From: an uncultured Bifidobacteriaceae bacterium | GTDB lineage: Bacteria > Acidobacteriota > Vicinamibacteria > Vicinamibacterales > JAMQPK01 | Length of the DNA stretch: 64,000 bases | NCBI GenBank assembly: GCA_964356125.1 | Contig: CAYHHH010000002.1 | Span: 12,755 to 76,754 of the forward strand | Direction of reading: 5' to 3' | In this document: positions 4,197 to 45,150 of the stretch, one piece after another | Numbering within the stretch: the first letter of the stretch is position 1 | How the letters are laid out: each line of letters starts with the position of its first letter | Notes under the pieces: generated by a model | Told to the model about the DNA's origin: nothing | The model's database searches: none | The model's input: only the letters and a program-made list of their open reading frames with translations | Program-made: the position numbers and the translations under genes

Positions 4197-4212
4197 TCCA
4201 AATTTGTCTCAA

Positions 4213-4554: not shown

Positions 4555-6174
<1,620 letters not shown>

Positions 6175-11360: not shown

Positions 11361-11415
11361 ACGCCGCGGCGACGGGTTCTCGCGCGACGGATTCGCGGTA
11401 ATCTCGCGTGACTTT

Positions 11416-24250: not shown

Positions 24251-24384
24251 CTCCTCCTGTCCTTCCTGACGAGGGTTGCGTCAACGCGGCGAACGGACCG
24301 GCCGTCGTTAGGCGTCGTCGGTTTTATATCATGAAACTATGTTGTGTGCGGTGCACACTATAACCGCAGTCACACCCCTCGAAG

Positions 24385-24401
24385 TTGTGACAAATTGTGA
24401 C
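24385..24401 (+). promoter_or_regulatory. Candidate direct-repeat operator TTGTGAC-AAA-TTGTGAC
   Basis: Perfect 7-bp direct repeat with 10-bp phasing, 81 nt upstream of ATG 24483. Confidence 0.4.
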
Positions 24402-24407
24402 GGGTGG

Positions 24408-24424
24408 CTATCGATTATCGATAG
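24408..24424. promoter_or_regulatory. Perfect 17-bp palindrome CTATCGAT-T-ATCGATAG
   Basis: Checked base by base. Contains the 12-mer TATCGATTATCG that also occurs at 4259-4270. Lies in the divergent region between receptor 24250(-) and gene 24483(+). Confidence 0.4.
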
Positions 24425-24482
24425 GTCACCCGGCCGGTGTGTTACCATCGCCGCTTCACACCAGGCCGGAGGAATAGCACTC

Positions 24483-25652: not shown

Positions 25653-27602
25653 ATGAAGACATCAAAGCATCGCGCGCTGAGCGCAGTCGTGTACGCGTCG
25701 GTCCTCTTCGCGACGAGCGCGTTCGCGCAATCCGAGAGCGCCGGCGTGAATCAGTACTTCAACAACTGCGCCTCGTGCCATGAGAGCAACGAGCCAGGAC
25801 ATCAGGCGCCGTCCACCGCCGTGCTCAAGCGGATGACGCCTGAACGGATTCTCGAAGTGATGACGACCGGCTCGATGCGAACCGCCGCCGCCGCCGTCAG
25901 CGACCAGGACAAGCGCCTCATCGCGGAATGGGTGGCCGGGCGGAAGCTCGACACCGATCTGGTTGGCGCCGCCGAGAAGATGTCGAACGTCTGTGCCAGT
26001 CATGCGCCGGTGCGCGAATCGAACACGCCGGCATGGAACGGCTGGGGTGTTGATTACCGGAACTCGCGCTTCCAATCGGGCGCGGCCGCCGGCTTGTCTC
26101 CCGGACAAGTGTCGCGCCTGCAGCTGAAGTGGGCCTTCGGATTTCCGGGCGCCACGGCGCTGTACGGCCAGACGGTGTATGACGGACGGCTGTATGTGAC
26201 GTCCAATGCCGGGTACGTCTACTCGCTCGACGCCGAGACCGGCTGTCTGCACTGGGGGTTCCGCGCGCAATCGGCGGTGAGGAGCGGGTTCACGATTGGC
26301 CGCCTCAGCAAGACCGATCCGCGGCTCGCCATTTTCTTCGGCGATATTCATGGCACGGCATACGCACTGTCGGCAAGCACCGGCGAGGAGATCTGGAAGA
26401 CGCTTACCGATCCGCATCCGCTCGCTCGGATTACCGGAACGCCGGTGCTGTTCGAGGGACGGCTGTTGGTGCCGGTCGCCTCGCTCGAAGAGCCGGAGTC
26501 GGGACAGGCCGATTACGCGTGTTGCACCTTCCGCGGGTACATGTCGGCGTTGGATTCGGCAACCGGCCGTCAGATCTGGAAGACATACACGATTCCGGAC
26601 GTGCCGAAGGTCGTTGGCAAGAACTCGCGCGGCAAAAACATGCTGGAGCCGGCCGGCGCCGGCGTCTGGGCGACGCCGACGATCGACGTGAAACGCCGCG
26701 CTCTGTACGTGACCACCGGCAACGCCTTCTCGGGCACGCCCAAAACAGCCAACGCCGTGATGGCGATGAACATCGACACGGGCAAAGTACTGTGGTCGAT
26801 GCAGGCGCTCCCATTCGATACGTGGCACAACGGCTGTGTGCAGAACATTCCCGGTGGAGCATTTCCCGCTCGGAGTGGCGGCGGCGGACGTGGCGGCCGC
26901 GCCGGCGGACCTGGCATTCCCTATCCGCCTGAAAACTGCCCCGCGGTGCTCGGACCCGACTGGGACTTTGCAGCGCCTCCGGCGCTCGCGACAACCAGCG
27001 ACGGCCGGGACATTCTCATCGCGCCGCAGAAGCAGGGGCTCGTGTGGGCCGTCAATCCGGAAAACGGCCAGGTATTGTGGAAGCAGGATGTGGCGCGCGA
27101 AATCGCCGGCGGCCGCGGAGAGACGCTCTTCGGCGCTGCGGTAGACAGCGAGAAAGCCTACTTCGGTCTGATCAGCAGCGCGCACCTCGCGCTCGATCTC
27201 AAGACTGGGGAAGAGGTCTGGTACGTACCACTGATTCCGCCACCGGGCCGTGAGAACCAGCGCGGGGTCGTCGGCGCCGTCACGCTGATTCCCGGCGTGC
27301 TCTTATCGGGCGCGCGCGATGGGATGATTCGCGCGGCGTCGTCGCGAACCGGTCAACTCCTGTGGCAGTTCGACAGTGCGCAGGAATTCACGACCGTCAA
27401 TGGCGTGCAGGCGCGCGGTGGTTCCGCCGCCTCCGGCGGCCCCATCGTCGCGAACGGGATGGTGTTCATCGGCTCGGGCTATCCCGGCTTCCAGGGGGGA
27501 CAGCCCGGAAATGTGCTGCTTGCCTTCGCGCCGGCGGTGCGGCTCGACGTGCATGCCGACGAGTTGAAGCGGAAAGCTAGCGACGCCGACCCCAGAAAAT
27601 GA
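25653..27602 (+). CDS. Quinohemoprotein-like dehydrogenase: N-terminal cytochrome c domain + PQQ-type beta-propeller (PVA-dehydrogenase-like layout)
   Basis: 649 aa with signal MKTSKHRALSAVVYASVLFATSAFAQ. CASCH heme motif near the N-terminus. Repeated propeller blades (LYVTSNAGYVYSLDAETG, GMVFIGSGYPG). Confidence 0.8.
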   Translation: MKTSKHRALSAVVYASVLFATSAFAQSESAGVNQYFNNCASCHESNEPGHQAPSTAVLKRMTPERILEVMTTGSMRTAAAAVSDQDKRLIAEWVAGRKLDTDLVGAAEKMSNVCASHAPVRESNTPAWNGWGVDYRNSRFQSGAAAGLSPGQVSRLQLKWAFGFPGATALYGQTVYDGRLYVTSNAGYVYSLDAETGCLHWGFRAQSAVRSGFTIGRLSKTDPRLAIFFGDIHGTAYALSASTGEEIWKTLTDPHPLARITGTPVLFEGRLLVPVASLEEPESGQADYACCTFRGYMSALDSATGRQIWKTYTIPDVPKVVGKNSRGKNMLEPAGAGVWATPTIDVKRRALYVTTGNAFSGTPKTANAVMAMNIDTGKVLWSMQALPFDTWHNGCVQNIPGGAFPARSGGGGRGGRAGGPGIPYPPENCPAVLGPDWDFAAPPALATTSDGRDILIAPQKQGLVWAVNPENGQVLWKQDVAREIAGGRGETLFGAAVDSEKAYFGLISSAHLALDLKTGEEVWYVPLIPPPGRENQRGVVGAVTLIPGVLLSGARDGMIRAASSRTGQLLWQFDSAQEFTTVNGVQARGGSAASGGPIVANGMVFIGSGYPGFQGGQPGNVLLAFAPAVRLDVHADELKRKASDADPRK

Positions 27603-29550
27603 ACGTGCCGCGCACGCTCGACGTGACGATGTCCATCGCGCCGTCTTTGTTGAGGTCCGCCGCCGAGAATTGCGAGCCGACGCCAGACCGATTGTGAATC
27701 AGCTCGGGCACGAACTCCGCGCCGCCCGGCGCCTTCCGATTTCGCACGGTGCGAAACCAATACAGCGCCGGAGTGCCGTAAGGATCGGGGTCGGTATAGC
27801 TCTCCAGGTGGGAAAAGTAACGCTTGCCCGTGACGTAGTCAGTTACCCCGTCGCCGTCGATGTCGGCTGCCAGCGACGCGTGCATTTCCGACAGCGTCAC
27901 GTTGCCGGCGTTCTTCGTCGAGTAGTCGTCGATGATCATGTGCCGCTCGAACGAGATGCGCCCATCCGTGTCGCGTTTCTGCTCGAACCACGCCAGGCCG
28001 AATCCGTGAGCGTTCAGCCCGGTGACCACATCGTTGAGCGTGTCGCCGTTGACGTCATACACGCAGAGCTCGGCGCCTCCGGCGCCCTCCGCTCGGCCCC
28101 ACCGCCCGAACGCCTCGGGATGGTAGATCCACGCTTCAGACTCTGGACTCTGGACTGTCGACTCTGGACTTTGGACTTTCGACTTTGGACTAGCCGAAGG
28201 CTGTTCCCACCAGCCAGCCGTCTGGAGAATGTCCACGCGCCCGTCGCCGTTGATGTCGCCGGCACCCAGGCTGTGACCGTATGCCATTCCCGGCGCCGAA
28301 ATCGTGTGCACCACCCACGGGCGAGTTGGATCGGCAGGATCCGGCTGCGCGTACGCCAGCGTTCCCTTCGCCGTGCCGGTGCCGGTCCCGAAGATCGCTT
28401 CGGGCTTACCGTCGCCGTCCACATCCCGCATGAGCACCAGCTCGCTGTTGCCCTGCGGCACAGCCGGGTACTTCGCCCAGCGCCGGCGCTCGCCTTTCGG
28501 ATTCACGTACATAAATAAAGGACGGTTCTCGCCGGACACGACGTCGGGCCAGCCGTCGCCGGTGAAGTCGAAGACGAAGTGAAACCCGGCGCGCGGAAAC
28601 TGATCGCTCGGATTGACAGTCGGCGCGACATAGATCTCGCGTCGCGACGTGTACTCGGGCCCCAGGTAGTAGTACGGGCCAGCGACGACGTCGAGGACGC
28701 CGTCGCGGTTGAGATCACCGACGCCGGCGCCCCAGGTGTAGAAGAATTCGTCGAGCTGCTGCATGCGGAACCGTGTGGATGTCTGCTCGGGTGGTACGAC
28801 CCGCACGTTGAGATCTTTGAATGAGACGTCCTTGAAGTGCACCTCGCCGCTGCCCACGAAGAGCGCGACGGGCCCGTAGCCGCTGGCGCGGTCGTCGGTC
28901 GTTGCAGCGGGAATGTCGACCCCCTGATTCAGCGTCGATCGAATGATATCGGCGTCGAGCGCGACACTCAGCGTGTTCCACTCGCCCGCGCGCGGGCCGG
29001 GCTGCGGAGGCATCAGCGGAGCGAGCGGTACAGGCAAGGTCATCGCCGGACCGCCCGTGCCCGCGCCGCCGCGCGCTGGACCACCGCTCCGGGCACCTGC
29101 CGCAGGCGGCGGTGGCGCGGAGCGGATGAACGCCGCCACGCCGCGCAGCGGTTCGCGCGCCGTCTCGCGGCCTGCCGCGTCGAGCGTGACGCGAAATGCC
29201 GCGAGCTCACCGGCATTGAGCGCGAGATACACGCCGGTCATACCCTCAGCGGTTTTTTCGGCGCGGAAGAGCACCCCTGTGCGGCACTCCCCGGCGCAAC
29301 GGAACCGCGTGAAGAAGTTCAGATCCTGATACGACGCATCGAGCACGAGCCAGCCGCCGCCGGGGCCCGACGCGGTTCCGATCAGCTCGCCGTTCTGTGC
29401 CTTCCACTGTGAGGAGCCGAGCGTATGCCAGCCGGCGAGCGTGGACCCGCTGAAGGTCGAATCCGGCCGGAAATCATGTGCCGGTCCCTGCGCGCCGATC
29501 CACGCGGCGGCCAGTGTCACGGCGGCGACGATGACGACTAGTCGTCTCAT
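27577..29550 (-). CDS. Exported DUF1080 + FG-GAP/VCBS repeat protein (paralogue 2)
   Basis: 657 aa with signal MRRLVVIVAAVTLAAAWIGAQ. DUF1080-like LAGWHTLGSSQWKAQNGELIG...GVLFRAEK. FG-GAP-like DINGDGRVD and DVNGDTLND. Its ATG directly abuts the stop of the upstream paralogue. Confidence 0.9.
   Translation of the reverse strand: MRRLVVIVAAVTLAAAWIGAQGPAHDFRPDSTFSGSTLAGWHTLGSSQWKAQNGELIGTASGPGGGWLVLDASYQDLNFFTRFRCAGECRTGVLFRAEKTAEGMTGVYLALNAGELAAFRVTLDAAGRETAREPLRGVAAFIRSAPPPPAAGARSGGPARGGAGTGGPAMTLPVPLAPLMPPQPGPRAGEWNTLSVALDADIIRSTLNQGVDIPAATTDDRASGYGPVALFVGSGEVHFKDVSFKDLNVRVVPPEQTSTRFRMQQLDEFFYTWGAGVGDLNRDGVLDVVAGPYYYLGPEYTSRREIYVAPTVNPSDQFPRAGFHFVFDFTGDGWPDVVSGENRPLFMYVNPKGERRRWAKYPAVPQGNSELVLMRDVDGDGKPEAIFGTGTGTAKGTLAYAQPDPADPTRPWVVHTISAPGMAYGHSLGAGDINGDGRVDILQTAGWWEQPSASPKSKVQSPESTVQSPESEAWIYHPEAFGRWGRAEGAGGAELCVYDVNGDTLNDVVTGLNAHGFGLAWFEQKRDTDGRISFERHMIIDDYSTKNAGNVTLSEMHASLAADIDGDGVTDYVTGKRYFSHLESYTDPDPYGTPALYWFRTVRNRKAPGGAEFVPELIHNRSGVGSQFSAADLNKDGAMDIVTSSVRGTFIFWGRRR
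28139..28194 (-). repeat. Heptanucleotide tandem array (GACTCTG/GACTGTC/GACTTTG x ~8) inside the CDS
   Basis: Direct reading with unit boundaries 28139, 28146, 28153, 28160, 28167, 28174, 28181 and 28188. Encodes SPKSKVQSPESTVQSPESE between WWEQP and WIYHP. Confidence 0.9.
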
Positions 29551-31551
29551 CTATTTCCTTGTCCGCGGCTGGCCGAGAAACGCGAATGCGCCCAGCTCGC
29601 CCGCCGTCACCAGGTCCATCACGCCGTCCTTGTTCAGATCCACGGCGAGCACCTGCGAGCCTGCGCCAGACTGGTTGTGCACCAGCTCGGGCACGAATTC
29701 GGCGCCGCCCGGCGCGTTCTTGTTGCGAACCGTGCGGTAGACGTACAGCACCGGTGCGCCGTAGGGATCGGGATCGGCGTAACTCTCGTTGTGCGAGAAG
29801 AACCGTTTGCCGATGACGAAGTCGGTCGTACCGTCGCCGTTCATGTCGGCGCACGTCGAGCCGTGGGGTTCGGAGAAGACCACGCCGCCTGCGTTCTTCG
29901 TGGCGAAGTTGTCCGAAATCATGTGCCGCACGAAGGAGATCTGTCCGCCGGCATCGCGCTTCTGCTCGAACCACGCGAGCCCGAACACGTGCGCCTGCAG
30001 CGACGTCACGACGTCGTTGAGTTTGTCGCCGTTGACGTCGTACACGCACATCTCGGCGCCACCGGGCGCGCCGCGGCCGTTTTGACGCCCGAAGGCCTGG
30101 GGATGGTAGATCCACGGACTCTCGCCTTTCGACTGTCGACTTGCGCCTTGCGACTGTGCGGGCTGTTCCCACCAGCCGTACACGTTCAGGATGTCGACGC
30201 GTCCATCGCCGTTGACGTCGCCCGCGCCGATGCCATGCGCCGCGTAGGTGCCGGGCTCGCCAACTTGCGTCGACAGCCACGGCCCGGTGGGGTTGGCTGG
30301 ATCGGGCTTCGCCCATCGCACGGCGCCCGCGCTCGCGTACACCAGGTCGGGCTTGCCGTCCGCATCGACGTCCTTCATCACCGACACTTCCGAGACGTTG
30401 GGGGCAGGCGGCACGACGCCCGCGTACGAGTCCCATCGTCTCGGCTCGCCCTTCGGATTCACGTACACCCGGCTGCCCGACGTCGACGCGAGCAGCACGT
30501 CGGGCCACCCGTCTCCGGTAAAGTCGCCGGCGAACTCGAGCCAGTTCGACGAGAAGTTCGTCGAGGGGTTGGTGGAGAGCGCCATGTAGAACTCGCGCAC
30601 CTTCGTGAAATCGGGCCCCAGGAAAATGAACGGTCCCGACACGATGTCGATGTTGCCGTCGCGATCGAAATCCGCGGCGCCCGACGCGAAGGAATAGTAA
30701 AAAGGCGTGAGCCGCAACATGCGGTAGTTGGGCGATAGCTCTTCTTTGACGACTCGTTTGAGGCTCAGATCGCGATACGACACATCGCGGAAATGCACCG
30801 CACCCGAGCCGCCGACATAGATGGCTATAGGGCCGAACGTGCCGAGATCATCGTCGGCCGCGCCGCCGCCGTTGGCGGAAGTGTTCACCCACGGCCGCAG
30901 AATGTTCGCGTCGATCACGACGTCGACATCATTCCAGTCGTTCGGTTTGAGTGCGGATGGCGCCATCAGATCGGGGAGCGTTGCGCCGGATGGCAGCGCA
31001 CCGCGCCCGCGTCCGCCGACCTGCGCGCCGGCGGCGCCCGGCGCCCCGCGTCCGGCCCCGCGACCTGCACCACCGCCACGCGCGGCGGCTGCGGCCGCGG
31101 CTTCAGCCGCCGATGGTGCAACGCGAATCAACCCGCCGCCTGCACGAAGACGCTCTCGTGTCAGGATCGTGCCGTTCGCGTCGAGCGTGACGGCGTAGCC
31201 GCCGACCTCGCCTTCGTCCAGTGAGAGGAACACGCCTTTCATTCCCGTCGCCGTCTTCTCCGCGCGCAGCAGCACACCTGTCCGGCACTCGCCCACGCAC
31301 TTGAAGTCGGCGCCGAACTCGACATCCTGAAACGATGTGTCGAGCACGAGCCAGCCGCCGTCTGCCGACTTCGGTGTGCCAACCAATTCGCCGTCGATCG
31401 CTTTCCACTCGGCGGCGCCGAGCACATGCCAGCCGGCGAGCGTGCTTCCCTTGAACGTCCAGTCTGGAACGAACGTGCCGCGCGTGCCGCGAAGAGGCAC
31501 ACCTGTGAGCGCGCCGAGTATCGCGACGAGGCCGAGTAATCGACGCGTCAT
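29551..31551 (-). CDS. Exported DUF1080 + FG-GAP/VCBS repeat protein (paralogue 3)
   Basis: Start trimmed to ATG 31551 (MTRRLLGLVAILGALTGVPLRG) so it does not overlap gene 31589..32596. Collinear with paralogues 1 and 2. Confidence 0.9.
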   Translation of the reverse strand: MTRRLLGLVAILGALTGVPLRGTRGTFVPDWTFKGSTLAGWHVLGAAEWKAIDGELVGTPKSADGGWLVLDTSFQDVEFGADFKCVGECRTGVLLRAEKTATGMKGVFLSLDEGEVGGYAVTLDANGTILTRERLRAGGGLIRVAPSAAEAAAAAAARGGGAGRGAGRGAPGAAGAQVGGRGRGALPSGATLPDLMAPSALKPNDWNDVDVVIDANILRPWVNTSANGGGAADDDLGTFGPIAIYVGGSGAVHFRDVSYRDLSLKRVVKEELSPNYRMLRLTPFYYSFASGAADFDRDGNIDIVSGPFIFLGPDFTKVREFYMALSTNPSTNFSSNWLEFAGDFTGDGWPDVLLASTSGSRVYVNPKGEPRRWDSYAGVVPPAPNVSEVSVMKDVDADGKPDLVYASAGAVRWAKPDPANPTGPWLSTQVGEPGTYAAHGIGAGDVNGDGRVDILNVYGWWEQPAQSQGASRQSKGESPWIYHPQAFGRQNGRGAPGGAEMCVYDVNGDKLNDVVTSLQAHVFGLAWFEQKRDAGGQISFVRHMISDNFATKNAGGVVFSEPHGSTCADMNGDGTTDFVIGKRFFSHNESYADPDPYGAPVLYVYRTVRNKNAPGGAEFVPELVHNQSGAGSQVLAVDLNKDGVMDLVTAGELGAFAFLGQPRTRK
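30117..30158 (-). repeat. Degenerate heptanucleotide array (GACTCTC GCCTTTC GACTGTC GACTTGC GCCTTGC GACTGTG) inside the CDS
   Basis: Direct reading. Encodes AQSQGASRQSKGES at the same WWEQP...WIYHP loop. Confidence 0.75.
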
Positions 31552-31588
31552 GTGTGCCTCCACAAAAAGTGACGAACGCGGCCGTGCG

Positions 31589-32596
31589 TTATTTTGCGGC
31601 GACCCGCAGCTTCGACGCCATCGCACACTCCGCCATCACGGTGAAGTAGCGCTGCACGGCATCGGCGCCGATGATGAACGGATGGTTTTCGCCAGGCTGG
31701 CGCGGTGCCGCGAGCAGCCGGGCCTTCGTGTAGGCGCCATCATATTCGCTGTGATTCGAGAGCAGGACGCTCGCCCCCGCATCGGCTGCCGCCTTCGCGA
31801 TCTTGCGCTGCGAGGCGATGTACTCGTCCCACCGCGCGCCGTCTGTACCGAACGCGCCGGTGAGCGTGCCGCCCGAATAGGCGACCATCACGGTCCTGCC
31901 CTGGTCCTTCACGGGGAAGACATACGACAGCGTTCCAGGTGAGTGGCCCGGCGTCGCGACGATCTCCACAGTGGTGTCTCCCAGCGTCATCTTCCTGCCA
32001 TCCGATCCGACCGAGATGTCCTTCCTCGGTACTCCGCCCGCGGCGGTGGGCGGGCGGCTGAGTGTCGCCTCCCAGTCTGCTGCGCCCATCACGACTTGCG
32101 CGGTGTAGCGCTCCTGCAGCTCTGCAGCTCCCTGGTCGTGATCGCCGTGTGCATGGCTGATGATCACGTACTTGATGCCTTGCGGATTCAGCTTGAGCGC
32201 AGTCAGGCCGTCGATAATCTCCGGCCGTGTCGCCCAGGCGAAATTGGTATCGATGATGATGATGCCATCGCTCGTCTGGAGCGCCCACGTGGAATGCTGG
32301 CGTGTGCCCAGCCAGTAGAGGTTATCGAACACCTTGAAGGGCGGGGCATACCAGTTGGCACGGTCCGGTGTTTGAGGTGCGCCGGTTCCACGCGCCGCGC
32401 CGGCTCCGCGTGCGCCGCCGCCGCGCGGAGCGCTCGGGAGGCAGAGATTGATGAATGTGTTCCGGTGCTCCATTCCTGCAGCGGCCCTGGCCGTCGCGAT
32501 GTGGGCGTCAATCTGGCTGGGCGGCGCCTGCGCCAGGACAACGGTGCCGAGGAGCATGGCCGACAGTGAGGAAATCACGACAGACGTGCGCTTCAC
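31589..32596 (-). CDS. Exported subclass-B3-like metallo-beta-lactamase-fold hydrolase
   Basis: 335 aa with signal MKRTSVVISSLSAMLLGTVVLAQA. PFKVFDNLYWLGT, IIIDTNF, ISHAHGDHDQGAAELQ (HxHxDH) and TPGHSPGTL are collinear with B3 MBL motifs. Confidence 0.75.
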   Translation of the reverse strand: MKRTSVVISSLSAMLLGTVVLAQAPPSQIDAHIATARAAAGMEHRNTFINLCLPSAPRGGGARGAGAARGTGAPQTPDRANWYAPPFKVFDNLYWLGTRQHSTWALQTSDGIIIIDTNFAWATRPEIIDGLTALKLNPQGIKYVIISHAHGDHDQGAAELQERYTAQVVMGAADWEATLSRPPTAAGGVPRKDISVGSDGRKMTLGDTTVEIVATPGHSPGTLSYVFPVKDQGRTVMVAYSGGTLTGAFGTDGARWDEYIASQRKIAKAAADAGASVLLSNHSEYDGAYTKARLLAAPRQPGENHPFIIGADAVQRYFTVMAECAMASKLRVAAK

Positions 32597-32694: not shown

Positions 32695-33381
32695 TCAGCC
32701 TGATGTCATTGCCTCCACAGTCAATATGTAACCGTCGCCATGGACGGTGCGAAGAAAGCGCGGATTACGTGGGTCGGGCTCGATCTTCTGCCGGAGCCGC
32801 GAAACCGCCCGGTCGACCGACCTGGTGGTCGACGCGTCCACGAACCCCCAGATCTCCTTGAAAAGCTCGTCTCGGAAGACCACCCGCGAATGGCGTTCGG
32901 CGAGGACCCGCAGAATTTCGAACTCCCGGTGCGTCAGGTGCAAATCGCCGGTCGTGCCCGTCGCAATCCCCCGCTGGAAATCGATCGTGACCGATCCGAG
33001 CTGGACCGTGCCGACGGCCGGCTTCACACGGCGCAGCACGGTGTGGATGCGCGCCACCAGCTCTTCCATGTCGAACGGCTTGGTAATGTAGTCGTCCGCT
33101 CCGAGGCGCAGCCCCTGCAGCTTGTCAGCCTTCTCGCCGCGGGCCGACAAGATAATGATGGGCGTCTTGCCTCCGTGTCTGAGCACGCGGCCCAACTCGT
33201 ACCCGCTCAAGTCGGGCAGCATGAGGTCGAGAAGAACGAGATCGGGCACGAAGGAGCGGTAGAGGGTGAGTGCATTTTCCGCATTTGCCGCCCACTCGAC
33301 TTCGAACCCGTCCACGAGCAGGTTGTCGCGCAGGATCTGCACGAGCGACGAATCGTCTTCGACGATGAGGATGCGCGGCAT
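32695..33381 (-). CDS. OmpR/PhoB-family response regulator (receiver + winged helix)
   Basis: MPRILIVEDD...DLVLLDLMLPDLSG...DDYITKPF. C-terminal LTHREFEILRVLAE...RTVHGDGY. Confidence 0.92.
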   Translation of the reverse strand: MPRILIVEDDSSLVQILRDNLLVDGFEVEWAANAENALTLYRSFVPDLVLLDLMLPDLSGYELGRVLRHGGKTPIIILSARGEKADKLQGLRLGADDYITKPFDMEELVARIHTVLRRVKPAVGTVQLGSVTIDFQRGIATGTTGDLHLTHREFEILRVLAERHSRVVFRDELFKEIWGFVDASTTRSVDRAVSRLRQKIEPDPRNPRFLRTVHGDGYILTVEAMTSG

Positions 33382-33382
33382 G

Positions 33383-35056
33383 TCAAGCTTCCGCGGCCGG
33401 GATGCAGAGGGTCACCGTCGTGCCGGACCCGATCTGGCTGCTGATGTGGAGCGCGCCCTGGTGGTCTTCGGCGATGCGGCTGACGATCGCGAGGCCCAGT
33501 CCGTTGCCGTCGCCGGGCGCCGTCCTCCCGCGCACGAAGCGCCGCCTCACCGCGGGCAGTTCGTCGTCAGCGATGCCCACTCCGCGGTCGATAACCTCGA
33601 AGCGCACTTCACCGTTCGCCGCCGTGGCATGGATGGCCACGGACGTGGCGTCGCCTGAATAACGGATGGCGTTGTCGATGAGGTTGTCGAGCGCGAGAAC
33701 GATCGCGGTGCGATCGGCCTTGACGGCCGGGATGTCTGGCGCGACCGAGACGTCGAGGCTGAAGCCGCTGTCGGCCAGTTGCCGCCGAAACCCCTGTATC
33801 GCCTCGGTGATGAGCGCCCCCGGATCGTGCGGCTCGAACGAATACACCTCGGTGACGTCGGTGACCCTCGAGTACGCGAGCAGATTGTTCACGAGCCGCG
33901 TCAAACGCCGTTCTTCGCGCACGAGCATCTTCGCGTAGCGCTTGAGGTCCTGATCGGTCTTGATGCGGCCTCGGACCAAGGTCTCTCCGACCGCCCGTAT
34001 CGTGGAGAGCGGCGTTTTCAGCTCGTGCGTGACGGTCGCGACGAAGTCGGCACGCACGGCCGCGATCGCGGCGCTTGCCCGTGCCGCGCGGGCCGTTGCG
34101 AGGAGGCTGAGCGCCAGCAGCGTGACGCCCGCGCCGACCACCACGAGGCTCCGCCGCGCGCCGCGCGCCGCCAGCACGAACGTCGGATCGCCTGCGGCGC
34201 TCGTAGCGACCGTCCAGGACTGTTGCGTGAGATCGGCCGGTGGATCGACCGCGATCAGCGTGGGATCGAAGAACAAGACTGGAAAGGCGCGCGTGGCGGT
34301 CGCTTCCTGCGCTGACGGGTCCAGCGTGCCCGCGACACGGCGACCGCGTTCGTCGATCACGGCATAAGAGGTGGCGCTGGAATTTCCGACGATCTGCGCC
34401 ACTTGTTGGAGGATGTCGTTGAAATAATGGTTCCGCGCCCACTGCAGATTGACGGCGATGCCGAACACACGGTCGAGCCGTTCGCGCGTAGTACCTTCGT
34501 ACGCAAGCAGCGCGACAATTTGGTACCGGACTCCTCCTATTGACGTGTCGAACACCGAATAACGACGGCGGCGGGCGATGTCGAGTTCGACGCGCCGGCG
34601 CAGCGCCGCGATTTCCGGCGGATCGCGCCACACCTCGACGGGATAAACGTCCGCCTTTTCGGTGGCGGTGATCCAAGGCGGTAGCCGATCGGTGCGGGCG
34701 AACATCACAGCGCCGCCGCTCGATGGAGTCCATCCGAAGAAAAACTCCGGATAGGGATAGCGCGCAAATGCAAGCGCGACGAGATCGTTGGCCTCGTAGG
34801 GAGGATCGAACGCGTGGCGATTCTGCTCCGGGCTGTTCAGGATCGACGTCTGCACGCCGGACATGTCGCGAGTCAGCGCGCGGGTGAGCAGATCCGCCGC
34901 TTCCTGTCCGCGGTGATCGGCCAGGAGCGCCGCGCTGCGGTGCCACTGGTCGGTGACACGATAGCCGAACCACGCCAGCGCGCACAGGCCGCAGCAGATG
35001 AGCGCGGCCAGCCATGTGGAGGGCTCGGCGACGAACGCACGCGGCCGCAGGTTCAT
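33383..35056 (-). CDS. Sensor histidine kinase with large periplasmic domain
   Basis: 557 aa with two TM segments flanking about 270 aa. H-box FVATVTHELKTPLS. HATPase N/G boxes DNLIDNAIRY and GNGLGLAIV. 1 nt before the RR start and a 4-nt ATGA overlap with the upstream TAXI gene. Confidence 0.9.
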   Translation of the reverse strand: MNLRPRAFVAEPSTWLAALICCGLCALAWFGYRVTDQWHRSAALLADHRGQEAADLLTRALTRDMSGVQTSILNSPEQNRHAFDPPYEANDLVALAFARYPYPEFFFGWTPSSGGAVMFARTDRLPPWITATEKADVYPVEVWRDPPEIAALRRRVELDIARRRRYSVFDTSIGGVRYQIVALLAYEGTTRERLDRVFGIAVNLQWARNHYFNDILQQVAQIVGNSSATSYAVIDERGRRVAGTLDPSAQEATATRAFPVLFFDPTLIAVDPPADLTQQSWTVATSAAGDPTFVLAARGARRSLVVVGAGVTLLALSLLATARAARASAAIAAVRADFVATVTHELKTPLSTIRAVGETLVRGRIKTDQDLKRYAKMLVREERRLTRLVNNLLAYSRVTDVTEVYSFEPHDPGALITEAIQGFRRQLADSGFSLDVSVAPDIPAVKADRTAIVLALDNLIDNAIRYSGDATSVAIHATAANGEVRFEVIDRGVGIADDELPAVRRRFVRGRTAPGDGNGLGLAIVSRIAEDHQGALHISSQIGSGTTVTLCIPAAEA

Positions 35057-36021
35057 CGCCTCAACTCTCGCTCTCGATAGTAGAGCGCCGCGCCCGGGTG
35101 CAGCGGAACCGGCGTGGCCGGCGCACGTTCGGGCATCATGCCTTTCAGGAACGGCAGCTCTGCGGTGAGCTGAGGCAGCATTCGGAAGAGCCCCTCCGTC
35201 AGCCGCCGCACTATCGCGTCATCAAGACCGGCGCGCGCGAGCAGCACGACATCGACCGAGAGCGTGCGCACGGGTTGATCGACCCCGCGGTACGCGCCCG
35301 CAGGAATGAGCTCCGAGCGGAAGAATGGATACATCGTCCGCAGTCGATCCACGCGAGGACCGCCGATCGGTATCAGCCGCGCACCCGCGTCGCTCATGTG
35401 CTTCGCGTCTTCGTTCGGCACGCTCGAAACGGTGAATGCCGCATCGATCTCGTCGCGAAGCAGCATCGATGCGGTGAGCGGCACGGTCGCGTTCACTTCG
35501 TGCACGTCTCCCGGCGAGAAATACCCCTGTAGGAGTGCGTGCGAGATGACCGCGGCCCCGCTGCCGTCCGGGCCGACACCCACACGGCGGCCGACCAGCT
35601 CGTCGATCGAGCGGATACGCGAGCGGGGGCCGACCAGCAGCTGGACCGCGGAGGAATTCAGTATGGCGATGCCGCGAATCCCTCGCATCGCGCGGACCGA
35701 CTGACGCAGCCGTCCGTTGTAGGCCATGTAGGCGATGCCGGCCTGCGAGAGCCCGATGTCAATGGCGCCGTCTTCGAGCCCCTGAATGTTGTCCAGCGAT
35801 CCGGTCGTATCGATTTGCTGGATGCGAACGTCCGGCATCAGTTGCGCGTAACCCTTGACGAGCGCCTCGCTGAACGGCCGGAAGTTGCCGGATGGAAATC
35901 CGGTCGACATTCTGATCGTTGCGGCCTGCTCGGTGTCGGCTGACTGGACGCGCCCGCACGACGCGGCGAACGCCATCAAGGGCACGAGGGCCGCTGTCGA
36001 CAGGATGCGATGGGTTGTCAT
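35053..36021 (-). CDS. TAXI-family (TRAP-associated, immunogenic-protein-like) periplasmic solute-binding lipoprotein
   Basis: 322 aa. LMAFAASCGR lipobox. C-terminal PLHPGAALYYRE is characteristic of TAXI receptors. No TRAP membrane genes are adjacent. Confidence 0.75.
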   Translation of the reverse strand: MTTHRILSTAALVPLMAFAASCGRVQSADTEQAATIRMSTGFPSGNFRPFSEALVKGYAQLMPDVRIQQIDTTGSLDNIQGLEDGAIDIGLSQAGIAYMAYNGRLRQSVRAMRGIRGIAILNSSAVQLLVGPRSRIRSIDELVGRRVGVGPDGSGAAVISHALLQGYFSPGDVHEVNATVPLTASMLLRDEIDAAFTVSSVPNEDAKHMSDAGARLIPIGGPRVDRLRTMYPFFRSELIPAGAYRGVDQPVRTLSVDVVLLARAGLDDAIVRRLTEGLFRMLPQLTAELPFLKGMMPERAPATPVPLHPGAALYYRERELRR

Positions 36022-36082
36022 TCAGGGTTCCGAGCACTTGTGCCACTCGTGGATGCTGGTGTCAAGGGATAGGCTCTCCCGT

Positions 36083-36099
36083 GTCGCAACTTGTCCCAA
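36083..36099 (-). promoter_or_regulatory. Candidate direct-repeat operator TTGGGAC-AAG-TTGCGAC (read on the minus strand)
   Basis: 61 nt upstream of the TAXI start (36021), oriented toward it. 16/17 identical to 11344-11360. Confidence 0.45.
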
Positions 36100-36172
36100 T
36101 TTCCGCAGTAATGCCTCGCTACAGTACTTCGTATTGACTCAACAGTTGCAGTGTTTCCTGGAGGGAGGACGC

Positions 36173-39100
36173 ATGAAGATCGCGTGGAGAAGTGTGCTGG
36201 TGGCGGTACTTCTGTCGGCGGCGGCGAATGTCGGCGCACAGGCGCTATACGGGTCGCTCCTGGGCAACGTCGCTGATGAAACCGGAGCAGCACTTCCTGG
36301 CGCGACCGTCAGCGTGACGCAGCGGGAAACGAACCTCGTGCGCGAGGTCGTCACCAACGAAACCGGCGGTTACAACGTGCCGAACCTCCTGCCGGGCACC
36401 TACCAGATCGACGTGAAACTTCCAGGATTTTCAACCTTCACGGCACGTGACCTCAGCGTGCGCCAGGGGCTCGACGTTCGCGTCGACGCGAGACTGAGCG
36501 TCGGCGCGCTCGAAGAGTCGATCGTCGTCTCGGGGCAAGCAGCCGTTCTGCAGACCGAGAGCGCCGCCGTGCAGTCACTGACGACGGCCGAGCAGCTCGA
36601 GACCGTGCCGACGAGCGGACGCGCCTATCAGACGGCGCTTGCGCTCATGCCCGGCGTCGCGCAGCCGAGTTACGACCAGTCCGGCGGCAGCAACAATCCG
36701 ACGCGGTCGATGGCCGTGACGGTCAACGGCCAGCCGTCGAACAATACGGTCTTCCGCCTTGACGGCGTGTCGCAGATCAACCAGTTCTTTCAGCAGATCC
36801 AGGCCTACACGCCGAGTATCGAGGCGATTGAAACGGTCAGCGTCGTGACCAGCAGCTTCGACGCCGATCAGGGGATGGCGGGCGGCGCAGCCGTCAACGT
36901 GCAGGTGAAAAGCGGCACGAACAGCATTGCAGGCTCGATATTCGAGCACGTCACCGACTACCGGATGAAGTCGAAAAACTTCTTTCTGCCGGCCGGCGAT
37001 CCGAGAGGCACAGGCAGCGTGCACATCTACGGCGGCACGATCGGCGGGCCCATCAAGCGCAACAAGGTGTTCTTCTTTGCCAGCGCCGAGCGGACGCGCC
37101 AGCGCACCGAGGCCGGTAATGCCTTGTCGAACTCGGGCGCCAACGGCCTTCGCAGCCTTCCGACGATGGCGATGCGCGAAGGGAATTTCTCGGGCACCGG
37201 CACGGTGCTCTACGATCCGCGCACCGGGAACGCGAACGGCACAGGACGCACACCGTTCGCGTTCGCGAACTGCCCGGGGCTCAGCGTGCTCTCGGGCCCG
37301 CAATTCGACGCGTGCAACTACATTCCAGCGAACCGCATCAACCAGATCTCAAAGAACTTCCTGAGCAAGCTGGTGGCGCCGACGCTCCCTGGCTTCACGA
37401 ACAACTTCTTCGCGACCAACAGCTACGATACCGACTACAACAAGTACGACGGGAAGATCACCTGGACGCCGAGCGCGCGGGTCATCATCAACGGCCGCCT
37501 GGGCTACGGAGACAGCTACGAGGACAGCGCGCCCGAGATGCCGTCGATCGACGGCGGCGTCAACCAGATCTTCCAGGGCCGGATCTGGGACTCGACCGTG
37601 CACAGCCATTCGCTGGCAGTGACCTCCACGTTGTCGCCCACGATGGTGATGGACGGCGTGTTCGGGTTCACCCGCACTGATATGCTGGCGCGGCCGCACA
37701 CCGACGACTGCTGGGGCGAGCTGCTCGGCGTCAAGAACAGCTGCCAGCCGCCGCTCTCCCGCGCCACCGCGATTCCGCAAGTCACCGCATCGGTGTACCG
37801 GCTGTCCGGCGACGCCTCGCCGCGCGCGTACCGCGATCCGCAGTGGAGCGGCTCGATGAACTTCGGGTGGACCAAAGGGGACCACAACGTGAAGTTCGGC
37901 GGCGAGATGAAGATCCTGCATCAGAACCACTACGAGACGCAGACGCCGACGTTCACGTTCACGGGAGGCCGCACGGCGCTCGCCCCTGCGGGGCCGAACA
38001 ACTTCAACGCGTTCGCCGACTTCCTGCTCGGAGAGATGAACTCGAGAACGTCAGAAGCGATGACGCCGATGATCGGCGACAACCCAACCGTCGACGACAT
38101 GATGGATTTCCGCCCGGCCACGCTGCGGTCGAACCAGTACGGTCTGTACGTCCGAGACCAGTTCGAGCTGAACCGGAAAATGACGGTCTCGATCGGGCTG
38201 CGTTGGGAGTACTACCCGATGACACAGCGTGCGGACCGCGGTCTCGAGATCTTCGACTTCGAGTCGCGGCAGCTCTTGATCTGCGGGGTGTCCGGCAACC
38301 ACGACACGTGCGGGATCACCGTCGAGAAAGATCTGTTCACGCCGCGCCTGGGTTGGGCCTACCGTCCGACAGAGAAGACGGTTATTCGCGTGGGCTACTC
38401 GCGCAATCCGCAGAACGATACCTCGGGCCGCAATCAGATGCCGCCGTTCCAGGCATTCCCCGCGACCATCATCCTGACCGAGACGGCGCCGAACACCTAC
38501 TCGGCAATCGGCAACTTCAACGATGGCGTCAGCATCGTTCCGCAATTCGACCTGGCCGTCGGCCGCGTCACGCCGAGGGCCGGCATGACGACGTATCGCG
38601 ACAAGTTCGAGCGCGGCAAGATCTCCTCGTGGAATGTGAGCATGCAGCAGCTGCTGCCGGCCAACCACAGCCTGACGCTGGGCTACGTGGCGAACCGCCA
38701 GCGCGGCATGACGCGCAACCTGAATCAGAACTACGGTCAGCTTGGCGGCGGCACCGCGAGCCAGCCGTATCGCGAGCTCACCACGGCGGCCATCAACGTC
38801 CAGGGTCCGTACGGCCGGGTTAACTACGACTCGTTCCAGGCGAGCGTGAACAAGCGGATGTCGAACGGACTTCAGTACACCGCCGCGTACACGTTTGCGA
38901 AGGCGATCGACTGGTGGGCCGGTACGATTCCGCAACCTGAGTTCCAATACTTGAACAAGGGCAATCAATCCAACAGCAATCCGCACCTGTTCAATACATC
39001 GGTGATCTATGCGCTGCCGTTTGGCAAGGGCCGGAAGTTCCTCGATGACGCCGGTGCCTTATCGCACATCGCCGGCGGGTGGCAGGTCAACGCGTTCTTC

Positions 39101-39565
39101 ACCGCGCGCTCGGGAACGCCGTTCACGGTGACGGCTTCGACCGCTTCGCTCAATGCCGGCACCGGGACACCGCAGATGGCGGATCTTGTCAAGGAAGACG
39201 TCGAGATCCTGGGCGGACTGAGCCCGTATTTCGATGTGACCGCGTTCCGGCCGGTGACCCAGGTCCGGTTCGGCAACGCCGGATTCAACACCCTTCGGGG
39301 GCCCGGCGTCGCGAACCTCGACTTGAGCCTGTTCCGGACGTTCACGCTGGGCGGCGCAAGAACCTTGCAGCTGAGGGTTGAGGCGCTGAACGCGACCAAT
39401 ACGCCGCACTTCTCGAATCCGGCCTCAAACGTGGCCAATCTGCAGCTGAATCCGGACGGAAGTGTCCGTAGCCTCAATGGGTTCGGAGTGATTACGTCCA
39501 CGGATCGGCGGGGCCGCCAGTACGACGAACGGGAGTTCCGATTGGGTATCCGGATGACGTTTTAG
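36173..39565 (+). CDS. TonB-dependent outer-membrane receptor with N-terminal carboxypeptidase-regulatory-like domain
   Basis: Start trimmed to ATG 36173 (GGAGGGAGG upstream), giving MKIAWRSVLVAVLLSAAANVGAQALYGSLLGNVADETGAALPGATVSVTQRETN. Ends ...LGIRMTF. The track ORF start at 35855 would overlap the TAXI gene. Confidence 0.9.
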   Translation: MKIAWRSVLVAVLLSAAANVGAQALYGSLLGNVADETGAALPGATVSVTQRETNLVREVVTNETGGYNVPNLLPGTYQIDVKLPGFSTFTARDLSVRQGLDVRVDARLSVGALEESIVVSGQAAVLQTESAAVQSLTTAEQLETVPTSGRAYQTALALMPGVAQPSYDQSGGSNNPTRSMAVTVNGQPSNNTVFRLDGVSQINQFFQQIQAYTPSIEAIETVSVVTSSFDADQGMAGGAAVNVQVKSGTNSIAGSIFEHVTDYRMKSKNFFLPAGDPRGTGSVHIYGGTIGGPIKRNKVFFFASAERTRQRTEAGNALSNSGANGLRSLPTMAMREGNFSGTGTVLYDPRTGNANGTGRTPFAFANCPGLSVLSGPQFDACNYIPANRINQISKNFLSKLVAPTLPGFTNNFFATNSYDTDYNKYDGKITWTPSARVIINGRLGYGDSYEDSAPEMPSIDGGVNQIFQGRIWDSTVHSHSLAVTSTLSPTMVMDGVFGFTRTDMLARPHTDDCWGELLGVKNSCQPPLSRATAIPQVTASVYRLSGDASPRAYRDPQWSGSMNFGWTKGDHNVKFGGEMKILHQNHYETQTPTFTFTGGRTALAPAGPNNFNAFADFLLGEMNSRTSEAMTPMIGDNPTVDDMMDFRPATLRSNQYGLYVRDQFELNRKMTVSIGLRWEYYPMTQRADRGLEIFDFESRQLLICGVSGNHDTCGITVEKDLFTPRLGWAYRPTEKTVIRVGYSRNPQNDTSGRNQMPPFQAFPATIILTETAPNTYSAIGNFNDGVSIVPQFDLAVGRVTPRAGMTTYRDKFERGKISSWNVSMQQLLPANHSLTLGYVANRQRGMTRNLNQNYGQLGGGTASQPYRELTTAAINVQGPYGRVNYDSFQASVNKRMSNGLQYTAAYTFAKAIDWWAGTIPQPEFQYLNKGNQSNSNPHLFNTSVIYALPFGKGRKFLDDAGALSHIAGGWQVNAFFTARSGTPFTVTASTASLNAGTGTPQMADLVKEDVEILGGLSPYFDVTAFRPVTQVRFGNAGFNTLRGPGVANLDLSLFRTFTLGGARTLQLRVEALNATNTPHFSNPASNVANLQLNPDGSVRSLNGFGVITSTDRRGRQYDEREFRLGIRMTF

Positions 39566-39596
39566 TGTGCGAAACTCGAGTCCATCAGGAGCCACA

Positions 39597-39819
39597 ATGA
39601 CGCGGAAGGTGTTTGCCGGATTCGCGGTTTGCGCAATCAGCCGCGTGAGCACAGCAAGCCATCTGGCCCAAGGTGATCGAGCGCGACGCCGTCATCAACT
39701 GGATTCGCAAGCTGCCGGGCGTGGCGGACGCGGCGCCCGTGCGCAGCAGCGCCGGACGCGTGACGGCGCGCCGCCTGAATCGCGTCGAGTACAACTCAGA
39801 AAGGAACTCACACGTATGA
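39597..39819 (+). pseudogene. Possible frameshifted gene remnant in the receptor-cupin spacer
   Basis: AGGAG-N5-ATG at 39597 opens MTRKVFAGFAVCAISRVSTAS. A different frame (39649-39819, GC3-rich) reads AQQAIWPKVIERDAVINWIRKLPGVADAAPVRSSAGRVTARRLNRVEYNSERNSHV. Its TGA overlaps ATG 39816 (ATGA). Confidence 0.25.
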
Positions 39820-40811
39820 ATCGCGCACGGCGTGCCTGGAGGTTCGTTCGCATCCTGTTCGCGTGCATCGGCGCACTTGGATCGCTTCCCGCTCGACTGG
39901 GCGCCCAGGCGCCATCGGCCCCGACATTCCCCAACTCGATCACGGTCTCGTCAGGCCCGAAGACGAATCTGTTTCCGCACCTCATGACGAAAGCCGAAGT
40001 CCTGGCGGCGCTGGCGCAGGTGAAGGATTCGCAGGACCTCGTGGTGAAAAACAATTTCGCGCTCACATTGCGCGCGGCGAGCAATACGACGAAGCTGCCC
40101 TGGAAGATACACACCGAGGCCGATGAAATCTGGTTTGTCTACAAAGGGTCGGCCAGGGTGAGCCTGGCGCCGTTCTCGTTGCAGGTGGGCATCACGCCTC
40201 CAGGCACCACCCATGATGTGGGCGAAGGGGCCATCGTGAACGTCCCGCGCGGCATGGCGTATCGCATCATGCCCGCCGGCCGTTTCGAGTATGTGGCGGT
40301 ACGGAAATTTGCGATCCAGCCTCCTCCTGCCGGCCGGGCTGGCGGCCCGCCTCCGGGGCCACCGCCGACCGTGGTGACCCAAGCGCAACTCGATGAGTTC
40401 TACGCCACCGCTACGAGGAGCGTGGTCCTCTATCCCGGAATCACTCGCAATCTCTATAACGGCGGCCCCGACGGCGTGAAATGGGGTCCGTTCGATGGCG
40501 GTCCCGTCGAAAACCATGAAATCGACGAGCACCTCTATGTGGTGACGTATGGCACGGGCAAGGCGTATCTGGACGGGTTCATCCCCAACGGGCACTGGGA
40601 CACCCGCGGCGTGATGGGAGTCCCGCTCCCGCAGGGTTCAACTGAGTACACGATCAACCCGGGCGACCTCCTGTTCGTCTTCCGTAATACGCTGCACTAC
40701 ATCGTTCCCATCCCCGCCAGGGGCAAGGTCGGCTACCTCCTTGTCGATCTACCGGAGAGCGAGGCGTTCTGGCCGAAGTCGATTGTGCCGAATGGCACCG
40801 GTGCGTACTAG
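39816..40811 (+). CDS. Exported bicupin protein (paralogue A)
   Basis: Start trimmed to ATG 39816, giving MNRARRAWRFVRILFACIGALGSLPARLGAQA. Cupin-like HTEADEIWFVYKGSARV...VNVPRGMAYRI, and a second HEIDEHLYVVTYGTGKAYL...GDLLFVFRNTLHYI. Confidence 0.8.
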   Translation: MNRARRAWRFVRILFACIGALGSLPARLGAQAPSAPTFPNSITVSSGPKTNLFPHLMTKAEVLAALAQVKDSQDLVVKNNFALTLRAASNTTKLPWKIHTEADEIWFVYKGSARVSLAPFSLQVGITPPGTTHDVGEGAIVNVPRGMAYRIMPAGRFEYVAVRKFAIQPPPAGRAGGPPPGPPPTVVTQAQLDEFYATATRSVVLYPGITRNLYNGGPDGVKWGPFDGGPVENHEIDEHLYVVTYGTGKAYLDGFIPNGHWDTRGVMGVPLPQGSTEYTINPGDLLFVFRNTLHYIVPIPARGKVGYLLVDLPESEAFWPKSIVPNGTGAY

Positions 40812-44987: not shown

Positions 44988-45150
44988 AGGCCCCTAACCG
45001 GCGGTTGCGTGGACGATTGTATGAACGTGTCGCGTGCGGGCGATATGATGGCGGTCATAGGCGGCGCCATGCGCCCATGATATTCCGTGCACCGCCGTGC
45101 GAACAACATCGGATTAGCGCTTGGCGGGTCACTCTCGAAGGAGGCACTGC

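Follow-up and report, generated by a model that had tools for sequence, protein, structure and literature searches.

Some bacterial sensor histidine kinases receive their signal through a periplasmic solute-binding protein (SBP). The precedents are the pairs LuxP/Q, TorT/S, ChvE/VirA, CBP/ChiS, AioX/AioS and BctC/BctE (PMC8050422), together with DctB/DctS (cited in PMC12718363). About 10 binding-protein-dependent kinases have been characterized, with 13 SBP families (PMC9602780), and in VirA, ChiS and LuxQ, kinases that depend on an SBP, the sensor domains are dCache-like and carry no Pfam annotation (PMC8050422). As for the TAXI family of binding proteins, a 2018 review of TRAP transporters states that they are always found with a fused DctQM (PMC5812351). 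TAXI (NMT1_3) is missing from the SBP-kinase pairs tabulated in a 2021 review (PMC8050422), and our search of the full-text literature, which left most subscription papers outside, brought up no TAXI protein paired with a kinase; an earlier mention is possible. Here we describe a TAXI-family lipoprotein gene that forms an operon with the genes of a histidine kinase and a response regulator, found in a 64-kb stretch of DNA (the window) from a soil acidobacterium of the Vicinamibacterales.

An earlier note on this DNA had proposed binding-protein-dependent signalling of the TorT/TorS and LuxP/LuxQ kind. The proposal is supported by the conservation of the module, the absence of a nearby TRAP permease, the LuxQ-like fold of the kinase sensor domain, the pattern of variation in the binding pocket and a repeat shared among the loci. 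We consider it fairly probable that the locus encodes TAXI-dependent two-component signalling, in which the TAXI protein would bind a solute and dock on the kinase, and the regulator would control a TonB-dependent sugar-oxidation locus. The TAXI-kinase contact, the identity of the ligand, the binding of the regulator to the repeat and the sign of the regulation are what we infer from the sequence.

The TAXI protein, its kinase and its regulator

The first gene of the operon (35053 to 36021, minus strand) encodes the TAXI-family solute-binding lipoprotein of 322 amino acids (aa), the second (33383 to 35056, minus strand) a sensor histidine kinase of 557 aa with the H-box VTHELKTPL, and the third (32695 to 33381, minus strand) an OmpR/PhoB-type response regulator of 228 aa. 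The list of open reading frames (ORFs) and the domain matches thus agree with the three minus-strand genes named in the earlier note. The two tight junctions that it reported are also exactly as read in the sequence: the TAXI gene ends in ...CGATGA, whose ATG is the kinase start, giving a 4-bp ATGA overlap (35053 to 35056, minus strand; a -4 overlap is present in most related loci too), and the TGA stop of the kinase is followed by one base and then by the ATG of the regulator. We take the ATGA overlap to be a case of translational coupling. The G+C content of the window is 62 to 69%, and the close homologues of the module likewise come from Vicinamibacterales (Acidobacteriota).

Judged by a full-length match above the curated threshold, the binding protein is a bona fide member of the TAXI family. 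It scores 187.5 bits against TIGR02122 (cutoff, 84.35) over residues 9 to 318, and 148 bits against PF16868 (NMT1_3; E value of 5e-43; cutoff, 27). It aligns over nearly its entire length with the solved structures 8S4J, 1US4 and 4DDD (E values from 4e-29 to 2e-22), the best of which, at 4e-29, is the glutamate-binding TAXI protein VcGluP (PDB 8S4J), and it carries the typical C-terminal PLHPGA..YY motif. This homology and a lipoprotein signal peptide together identify it as an exported two-lobed SBP. The signal peptide (35956 to 36021, minus strand), read from the translation, has the lipobox FAAS-C (residues 19 to 22, Cys22), and nearly all of 67 TAXI homologues have a Cys that follows a hydrophobic stretch. 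Such a conserved lipoprotein anchor would keep the TAXI protein at a membrane surface near the kinase.

Pocket positions were taken from the published ligand contacts of VcGluP (PMC11574862) and mapped by alignment to 8S4J. The contacts S75 and Q93 are kept, Y45, Y46 and H123 are replaced by F47, R48 and N122, and the acidic residues E125 and D157 by S124 and A156. In VcGluP, E125 and D157 hold the amino group of glutamate or its water (PMC11574862), and E125 was kept in none of 66 TAXI family members. Because these two residues have become Ser and Ala, and Y46 an Arg, the protein is unlikely to bind glutamate in the manner of VcGluP. The ligand is probably an anionic carboxylate that lacks an alpha-amino group; from the gene context it could plausibly be a sugar acid, although this is speculation. 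Across paralogues, the pocket is more variable than the rest of the protein (conservation of 0.40 versus 0.54, p=0.016), and within the orthologous group the same positions are conserved (0.88), giving them a specificity score of 0.49 versus a background of 0.27 (p=0.0007). By these measures, the pocket varies in a specificity-determining pattern, fixed among orthologues and different between paralogues.

The kinase has the features of the HisKA class, with HisKA at residues 335 to 398 (PF00512, 1e-15), HATPase_c at residues 448 to 555 (PF02518, 4.5e-24) and the motifs THELKTP, DNLIDNAIRYS, DRGVGI and GNGLGLAIV. Hydropathy and a structural model place its first transmembrane helix (TM1) at residues ~14 to 32 (34961 to 35017, minus strand; part of a long helix, 12 to 65, in the model) and its second (TM2) at residues ~303 to 325 (34082 to 34150, minus strand; helix 291 to 333 in the model), in keeping with the periplasmic domain of about 270 aa that had been predicted. 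TM2 continues straight into the DHp helix, with ~18 residues from TM2 to the phospho-acceptor His, and no HAMP or PAS domain was matched in the kinase by Pfam and NCBIfam scans. Residues 1 to 330 had no Pfam match at an E value of <0.01 and no NCBIfam match, and the dCache_1/2/3 models were not matched. The name PhoR, given to the kinase by JGI, is rejected: TIGR02966 reaches 153 bits versus a cutoff of 334, it covers the kinase core only, and the protein has no PAS domain. The NCBI name "HAMP domain-containing" likewise fails for want of a HAMP match. Going by the sequence, the database names "TRAP transporter TAXI family solute receptor", "phosphate regulon sensor histidine kinase PhoR" and "HAMP domain-containing" do not appear to be supported as descriptions of function.

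The fold of the sensor domain (residues 33 to 302; 34151 to 34960, minus strand) was predicted with AlphaFold2 from kinase residues 1 to 334 and a 98-sequence alignment, and the model is confident (pLDDT of 90.4, pTM of 0.83). In it, a long N-terminal helix comes first, two PAS-like alpha/beta modules follow one after the other, and a C-terminal helix leads into TM2. Foldseek matched it to many dCache/double-PDC structures (E values from 6e-7 to 1e-3), with KinD first (6e-7), followed by PctD, TlpQ, McpU and TlpA, and also to the LuxQ periplasmic domain from the LuxP complex (2hj9_D, E value of 2.4e-4), all at a sequence identity of ~10%. The model thus confidently predicts a double-PDC (dCache-like) fold, of the class to which LuxQ belongs, and on this model the sensor domain is of the same kind as those of VirA, ChiS and LuxQ. 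The membrane-distal PDC module contains 21 residues that are at least 90% conserved throughout the family, including FARYPYPEFF, R121, R124, W128 and Q179, a pattern that would fit the recognition of a constant partner surface. Because the TAXI pocket varies between paralogues while the distal PDC module of the kinase stays invariant, the simplest reading seems to be that specificity resides in the TAXI protein and that the kinase recognizes a constant feature, presumably the TAXI protein itself.

Conservation of the module in Acidobacteriota

The earlier note had named a survey of gene neighbourhoods as a check on its proposal. We used the N-terminal 334 residues of the kinase as the sensor query, which retrieved 234 homologues in an indexed search, and a 10-sequence sensor profile against 1.84 billion proteins, which gave 646 cluster representatives at an E value of ≤1e-3 and 237 at ≤1e-30. 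A scan of one genome per GTDB species produced 106 matching stretches, from which 80 loci were kept; the count of 82 loci used below includes three loci fetched by exact protein look-up. All of the 80 loci belong to Acidobacteriota; most come from Vicinamibacterales and a few from Bryobacteraceae, a single genome often has several paralogues, and the sensor domains are 36 to 89% identical. A TAXI ORF lies directly upstream of the kinase on the same strand in 72 of the 82 sensor-domain loci, typically with the -4 overlap and with the regulator next. The linkage of TAXI genes to kinase and regulator genes therefore passed the check, being kept down to 36% sensor identity and mostly with the 4-bp overlap. 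Since the arrangement recurs in so many loci with a homologous sensor domain, we do not regard it as due to chance, and on these sequences the sensor domain defines an unannotated dCache-like family with the TAXI protein as its constant partner. Among the exceptions, three loci have the TAXI and/or regulator gene divergently placed and two are cut by contig ends. A divergent regulator is also seen in L018, L046, L062 and L078, to which we return below; these are flanked by pairs of ~800-aa secreted proteins that share the motif DPL(x)C(x)(x)SGY(x)(x)(x)PGL at the mature N terminus.

Pairwise distances of the TAXI protein, the sensor domain and the regulator correlate over 56 complete modules (r=0.81 to 0.89; Mantel, 0/999), with r=0.82 for TAXI versus sensor domain (Mantel, 0/999), and therefore the three genes have diversified together as a unit. 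Natural TAXI-kinase fusions were considered as Rosetta-stone evidence, and the candidates P0210, P0237 and P0238 were discarded as gene-calling artefacts; these apparent fusions in public clusters show out-of-frame Arg-rich N termini or a frameshift at the ATGA junction.

No gene for DctM, DctQ, a fused QM or a small DctQ-like protein of four transmembrane helices was detected in the window, as the earlier note had also read it, when all polytopic ORFs were examined by hydropathy and family scan. The only polytopic membrane ORFs are an L-lactate permease (4555 to 6174) and two MFS carriers (51169 to 52425 and 54175 to 55521). The same holds within ±10 kb of the 80 loci, where no TRAP permease was found when every polytopic ORF was scanned against Pfam. 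In the local sense, then, the term "orphan" applied to this TAXI protein was apt. Two polytopic neighbours match DctM at 3e-8 and were rejected, one such match being a Na_sulph_symp/CitMHS carrier (L077), and 600-aa membrane proteins beside some modules are PETase-like hydrolases, SulP, CLC and Mrp proteins, not TRAP. Among the PETase-like proteins, those at 9848 to 11680 in L016 and 12509 to 14371 in L017 have an unusual architecture, an N-terminal PETase/AXE-like alpha/beta-hydrolase domain with 10 to 11 predicted transmembrane helices in ~610 aa; the gene directly follows the module in L017 and lies ~6 kb downstream of it in L016.

The commonest polytopic neighbour family is SDF (DctA/GltP type), found at 16 loci and directly adjacent to the module in 7 (L022, L030, L032, L044, L056, L057 and L063). 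In L044, the TAXI and SDF genes follow one another on one strand, divergent from the kinase. This adjacency recalls the Bacillus DctB-DctS-DctA unit and the TAXI-GltS transporter class. In the immediate flanks, TonB-dependent receptors are the most frequent genes (15 to 17 of 85 non-redundant), followed by cupins, PQQ (pyrroloquinoline quinone) dehydrogenases and SDF carriers.

Among orthologues (62 to 89% sensor identity), the conserved block consists of a divergent TonB receptor gene and the TAXI, kinase, regulator and metallo-beta-lactamase (MBL)-fold genes. The TonB-dependent receptor (36173 to 39565, plus strand; CarboxypepD_reg, plug and barrel; PF25183, 3e-176) is 71 to 86% identical in L001, L004 to L006 and L008 to L013, and it is likely a regulatory target of the module. 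The fourth gene of the block (31589 to 32596, minus strand) encodes a secreted MBL-fold protein (PF00753, 1e-16), distant and subclass B3-like, with 114 bits against NF033105, under the cutoff of 240. It is present in L001, L004, L006 to L013 and L031 and was not found in L005; in L006 to L008 it sits between the kinase and the regulator. In L002, a gene similar to class C beta-lactamases and esterases is located upstream instead.

A direct repeat and the surrounding genes

The intergenic region between the TAXI and TonB receptor genes contains TGTGACAAGTTGCGACA in all orthologues, the window version being TGGGACAAGTTGCGACA (36082 to 36098, minus strand). It is an instance of a 17-bp tandem repeat, TGnGACA-N3-TGnGACA, with 10-bp periodicity and the family consensus TGCGACAAnTTGCGACA. 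With up to one mismatch, 82 copies of the repeat were counted in the 1.44 Mb of retrieved loci, where ~6 would be expected, an enrichment of ~13-fold. About 60% of the copies flank the module, just upstream of the TAXI gene or just downstream of the regulator gene, and in L032 and L014 the repeat stands directly before the adjacent SDF genes. The window has five copies at this stringency, all of them intergenic. Besides the one in the divergent promoter region, there is TGGGACAAGTTGTGACA (11345 to 11361, plus strand), between the MR_MLE dehydratase and arabinofuranosidase genes, and three copies with one mismatch: at 24386 to 24402 (plus strand), between the TonB receptor gene 20843 to 24280 and the operon leading toward a PQQ dehydrogenase/cytochrome c gene; at 1710 to 1726 (plus strand), between a 3-keto-disaccharide-hydrolase/FG-GAP gene and the PQQ dehydrogenase gene 1782 to 4109; and at 4195 to 4211 (minus strand), upstream of the lactate-permease-family gene 4555 to 6174.

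A TAnnnT hexamer (TATAGT or TATACT) is found 20 to 23 nucleotides (nt) from the repeat in 55 of 86 occurrences. In the window, the -10-like hexamer TACAGT (36120 to 36125, plus strand) lies 21 nt from the repeat and faces the TonB receptor gene, and the TAXI operon has the -35-like hexamer TTGACA (36060 to 36065, minus strand), 16 nt downstream of the repeat and conserved as CCCTTGACA in orthologues. In the lineage of the window, the -10-like hexamer stands on the opposite side of the repeat compared to most paralogous loci; the same operator is therefore used in both orientations with the same spacing.

The regulator combines a receiver domain and a winged helix (PF00072, 5e-28; PF00486, 8e-23), which makes it a member of the OmpR/PhoB family, and it reaches no equivalog cutoff in the NCBIfam scan. 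The architecture of the repeat is what would be expected for an OmpR/PhoB-type dimer, and from their co-localization we regard the repeat as a candidate site of this regulator. The recognition helix of the regulator is among its best-conserved parts across paralogues, and this fits a motif that is common to the paralogous loci. Two other interpretations of the promoter region were set aside. A conserved TGGCAC upstream of the TAXI gene might suggest the -24 element of a sigma-54 promoter, but this would require 3 nt more between GG and GC, and the regulator belongs to the OmpR type. The repeat as a plain -35 element was rejected for its 20 to 23 nt spacing to the -10 hexamer.

The sugar-oxidation surroundings described in the earlier note are real, with genes for PQQ dehydrogenases, an SGL lactonase, an MR_MLE dehydratase, an arabinofuranosidase and 3-keto-disaccharide-hydrolase/FG-GAP proteins. 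In all, the window has four PQQ dehydrogenases, some fused to cytochrome c (among them those at 1782 to 4109, 25653 to 27602 and 52443 to 54194; GSDH types occur in related loci), an SMP-30/gluconolactonase-domain (SGL) protein, the MR_MLE dehydratase, the Tat-signal arabinofuranosidase, a xylose-isomerase-like TIM barrel protein, five TonB-dependent receptors and an IclR regulator. The genes at 3 to 1658, 27577 to 29550, 29551 to 31626 and 47256 to 49865 encode three paralogous secreted 3-keto-disaccharide-hydrolase/FG-GAP proteins and one related FG-GAP/ASPIC/TPR protein. Their position beside PQQ dehydrogenases suggests, from gene content, a periplasmic 3-keto-sugar route. Five ORFs with high G+C at third codon positions and therefore well supported (24339 to 25643, 15014 to 16687, 42018 to 43313, 43818 to 44993 and 39567 to 40811), of 390 to 560 aa, match nothing above the Pfam cutoff and, where scanned, nothing in NCBIfam (15014 to 16687 was scanned against Pfam only); the product of 39567 to 40811 has a sub-threshold Cupin_2 match only. 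The first of them, 24339 to 25643, begins shortly after a repeat copy and precedes the PQQ dehydrogenase/cytochrome c gene. At the end of the window, a radical-SAM/SPASM protein gene (62677 to 63978) runs off the stretch; its product may be PqqE-like, given the many PQQ enzymes.

Proposed mechanism, alternatives and comparison with known systems

In the mechanism that we favour, the membrane-tethered TAXI lipoprotein would bind a small periplasmic solute, for instance a sugar acid from the neighbouring periplasmic PQQ-dehydrogenase/lactonase pathway, and would dock, in its liganded or unliganded state, on the kinase's periplasmic double-PDC domain. From there, TM2 would pass the signal straight to the DHp helix, as no HAMP domain intervenes, and the phosphorylation of the OmpR-type regulator would change. 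The regulator would bind TGnGACA-N3-TGnGACA at the divergent promoter that the operon shares with the TonB receptor gene, and likewise at the four further promoters of the window that carry the repeat.

Several observations weigh against this mechanism or loosen parts of it. Domains of the dCache type usually bind small ligands themselves, so that the kinase could sense directly. The loci L018, L046, L062 and L078 have no adjacent TAXI gene, and thus the sensor domain can apparently work without a TAXI protein encoded in cis. A Gly follows the lipobox Cys, so the TAXI protein may be tethered to either membrane, and none of the three candidate TAXI-kinase fusions is genuine. Finally, the repeat is nearly identical for all paralogues, which makes the assignment of the five window sites to this regulator uncertain, as paralogous regulators encoded elsewhere could use them. 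The control of the surrounding sugar-oxidation genes that the earlier note had suggested is supported by the repeat copies at window promoters, with this caveat about paralogous regulators.

One of the two main alternatives is that the TAXI protein is primarily the transport SBP of a carrier encoded elsewhere, either a distal TRAP DctQM or an SDF/DctA-type, LctP or MFS carrier, and that the two-component system regulates this carrier, or that the protein does both jobs, like BctC. The TAXI protein is a transporter subunit in every characterized case (PMC5812351, PMC11574862), TAXI proteins working with a non-TRAP carrier are documented (PMC12344293), SDF genes lie within 10 kb of 16 paralogous modules, with the one-strand TAXI-SDF order of L044 among the adjacent ones, and LctP and MFS carriers are encoded in the window. 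However, the absence of DctQ and DctM from the window and from ±10 kb of the 80 loci, and an orthologous block (the TonB receptor gene and the TAXI-kinase-regulator-MBL genes) that comes without any inner-membrane carrier, speak for another role. The invariant partner of the TAXI gene is the kinase gene, with its start/stop overlap, rather than any transporter, and it is with the kinase sensor domain that the TAXI protein co-diverges. We therefore consider a primary role in transport unlikely.

Alternatively, the kinase could sense its ligand directly in a pocket of the membrane-distal PDC module, the TAXI protein being a buffer or scavenger, or a negative regulator as apo-CBP is for ChiS, and not the determinant of specificity. 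The best structural matches of the sensor domain are indeed ligand-binding dCache/double-PDC domains (KinD-pyruvate, PctD, TlpQ and McpU), four family members have no adjacent TAXI gene, and the strongly conserved polar/aromatic cluster of the distal module could be such a pocket. Yet this cluster is invariant across paralogues whose neighbours differ (TonB receptors, SDF carriers, PQQ dehydrogenases and cupins), as presumably do their inducers, the specificity-determining variation lies in the TAXI pocket, and an SBP can use this fold class as a docking platform, as is seen in LuxQ, VirA and ChiS (PMC8050422). Direct sensing is, in our view, rather improbable. Lanthanide or PQQ sensing, suggested by the TonB receptor and the PQQ dehydrogenases, was set aside; the conserved orthologous block has no PQQ gene. 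Beta-lactamase induction might be suggested by the MBL-fold gene downstream and the class C-like gene upstream in L002; the MBL score is far below the B3 cutoff.

If TAXI-dependent signalling is correct, its several hundred TAXI-kinase modules would bring one more SBP family into signalling, and the names "TRAP transporter TAXI family solute receptor" and "PhoR" would have to be revised for the hundreds of proteins that carry them. The operator motif and the candidate regulon would also offer a first way into the regulation of TonB-dependent carbon acquisition by abundant uncultured soil Acidobacteriota. With specificity placed in a soluble, easily purified protein, inducers could be tested by thermal shift and the modules used as biosensor parts. 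More tentatively, and with considerable doubt on our part, the TAXI branch of TRAP SBPs might have been wholly taken over for signalling in Vicinamibacteria and some other Acidobacteriota. Several modules per genome, with different pockets and a shared operator, would then be the main substrate sensors of TonB-dependent loci for nutrient acquisition and periplasmic oxidation, with no TRAP permease. If this is true, the modules would correspond in function to the hybrid two-component and SusR-type sensors found in the polysaccharide-utilization loci of Bacteroidota.

By analogy, the system would work like LuxPQ, TorTS, ChvE-VirA, CBP-ChiS, AioXSR, BctCDE and DctB-DctS, and it is a member of none of them by sequence. 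It shows the genetic coupling of SBP-dependent sensors in its ATGA overlap, its recurrence in 72 of 82 loci and its 270-aa periplasmic domain. As in LuxP/LuxQ, the SBP is encoded beside the kinase, and the tandem PAS/PDC periplasmic region of LuxQ binds the SBP and not the ligand. However, LuxP is a Peripla_BP-type (class I) protein and not a TAXI protein, and LuxQ, a hybrid kinase, passes its signal into a phosphorelay; the kinase described here is a plain HisKA protein whose partner is an OmpR-type regulator, and the sequence identity is ~10%. AioX/AioS/AioR and TorT/TorS resemble the module in having a dedicated SBP in an operon with the two-component system, with no cognate transporter and a role as co-sensor only. 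AioX belongs to Phosphonate-bd (PF12974), a family that also matches this TAXI protein weakly (E value of 2e-4). The SBPs of both systems are nevertheless of families other than this one, and in the Aio system the regulator is a sigma-54 activator and the AioS sensor is sCache-like (PMC8050422), in contrast to the double PDC here.

Two further systems are BctC/BctE/BctD (Bordetella citrate) and DctB/DctS/DctA (Bacillus), where SBPs of secondary transporters (TctC of the tripartite tricarboxylate transporters and a TRAP protein of the DctP type, respectively) signal to a kinase. As with DctB-DctS-DctA, the paralogous modules described here often adjoin DctA-type SDF carriers. However, BctC works for the BctBA transporter as well, its own carrier, and DctB is of the DctP type, while the protein here is of the TAXI type and has no TRAP or TTT membrane genes linked to it. 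On the DNA side, the repeat resembles the Pho box of PhoB/OmpR promoters in its tandem 7-bp repeats, its ~10-bp periodicity and its position upstream of or replacing the -35 element at a fixed distance from the -10, and differs in its repeat unit TGCGACA and in the spacing of 20 to 23 nt to the -10. Lastly, with the TAXI-TRAP systems (VcGluP-GluQM and TtGluBP) and the TAXI-GltS class, the module shares a true TAXI SBP and, as in BP0403, a lipoprotein anchor. Unlike them, it has neither a fused DctQM nor a GltS gene, and its constant genomic partner is a kinase; the fused DctQM whose linkage marks a TAXI-TRAP system is absent both from the window and from the flanks of the 80 loci.

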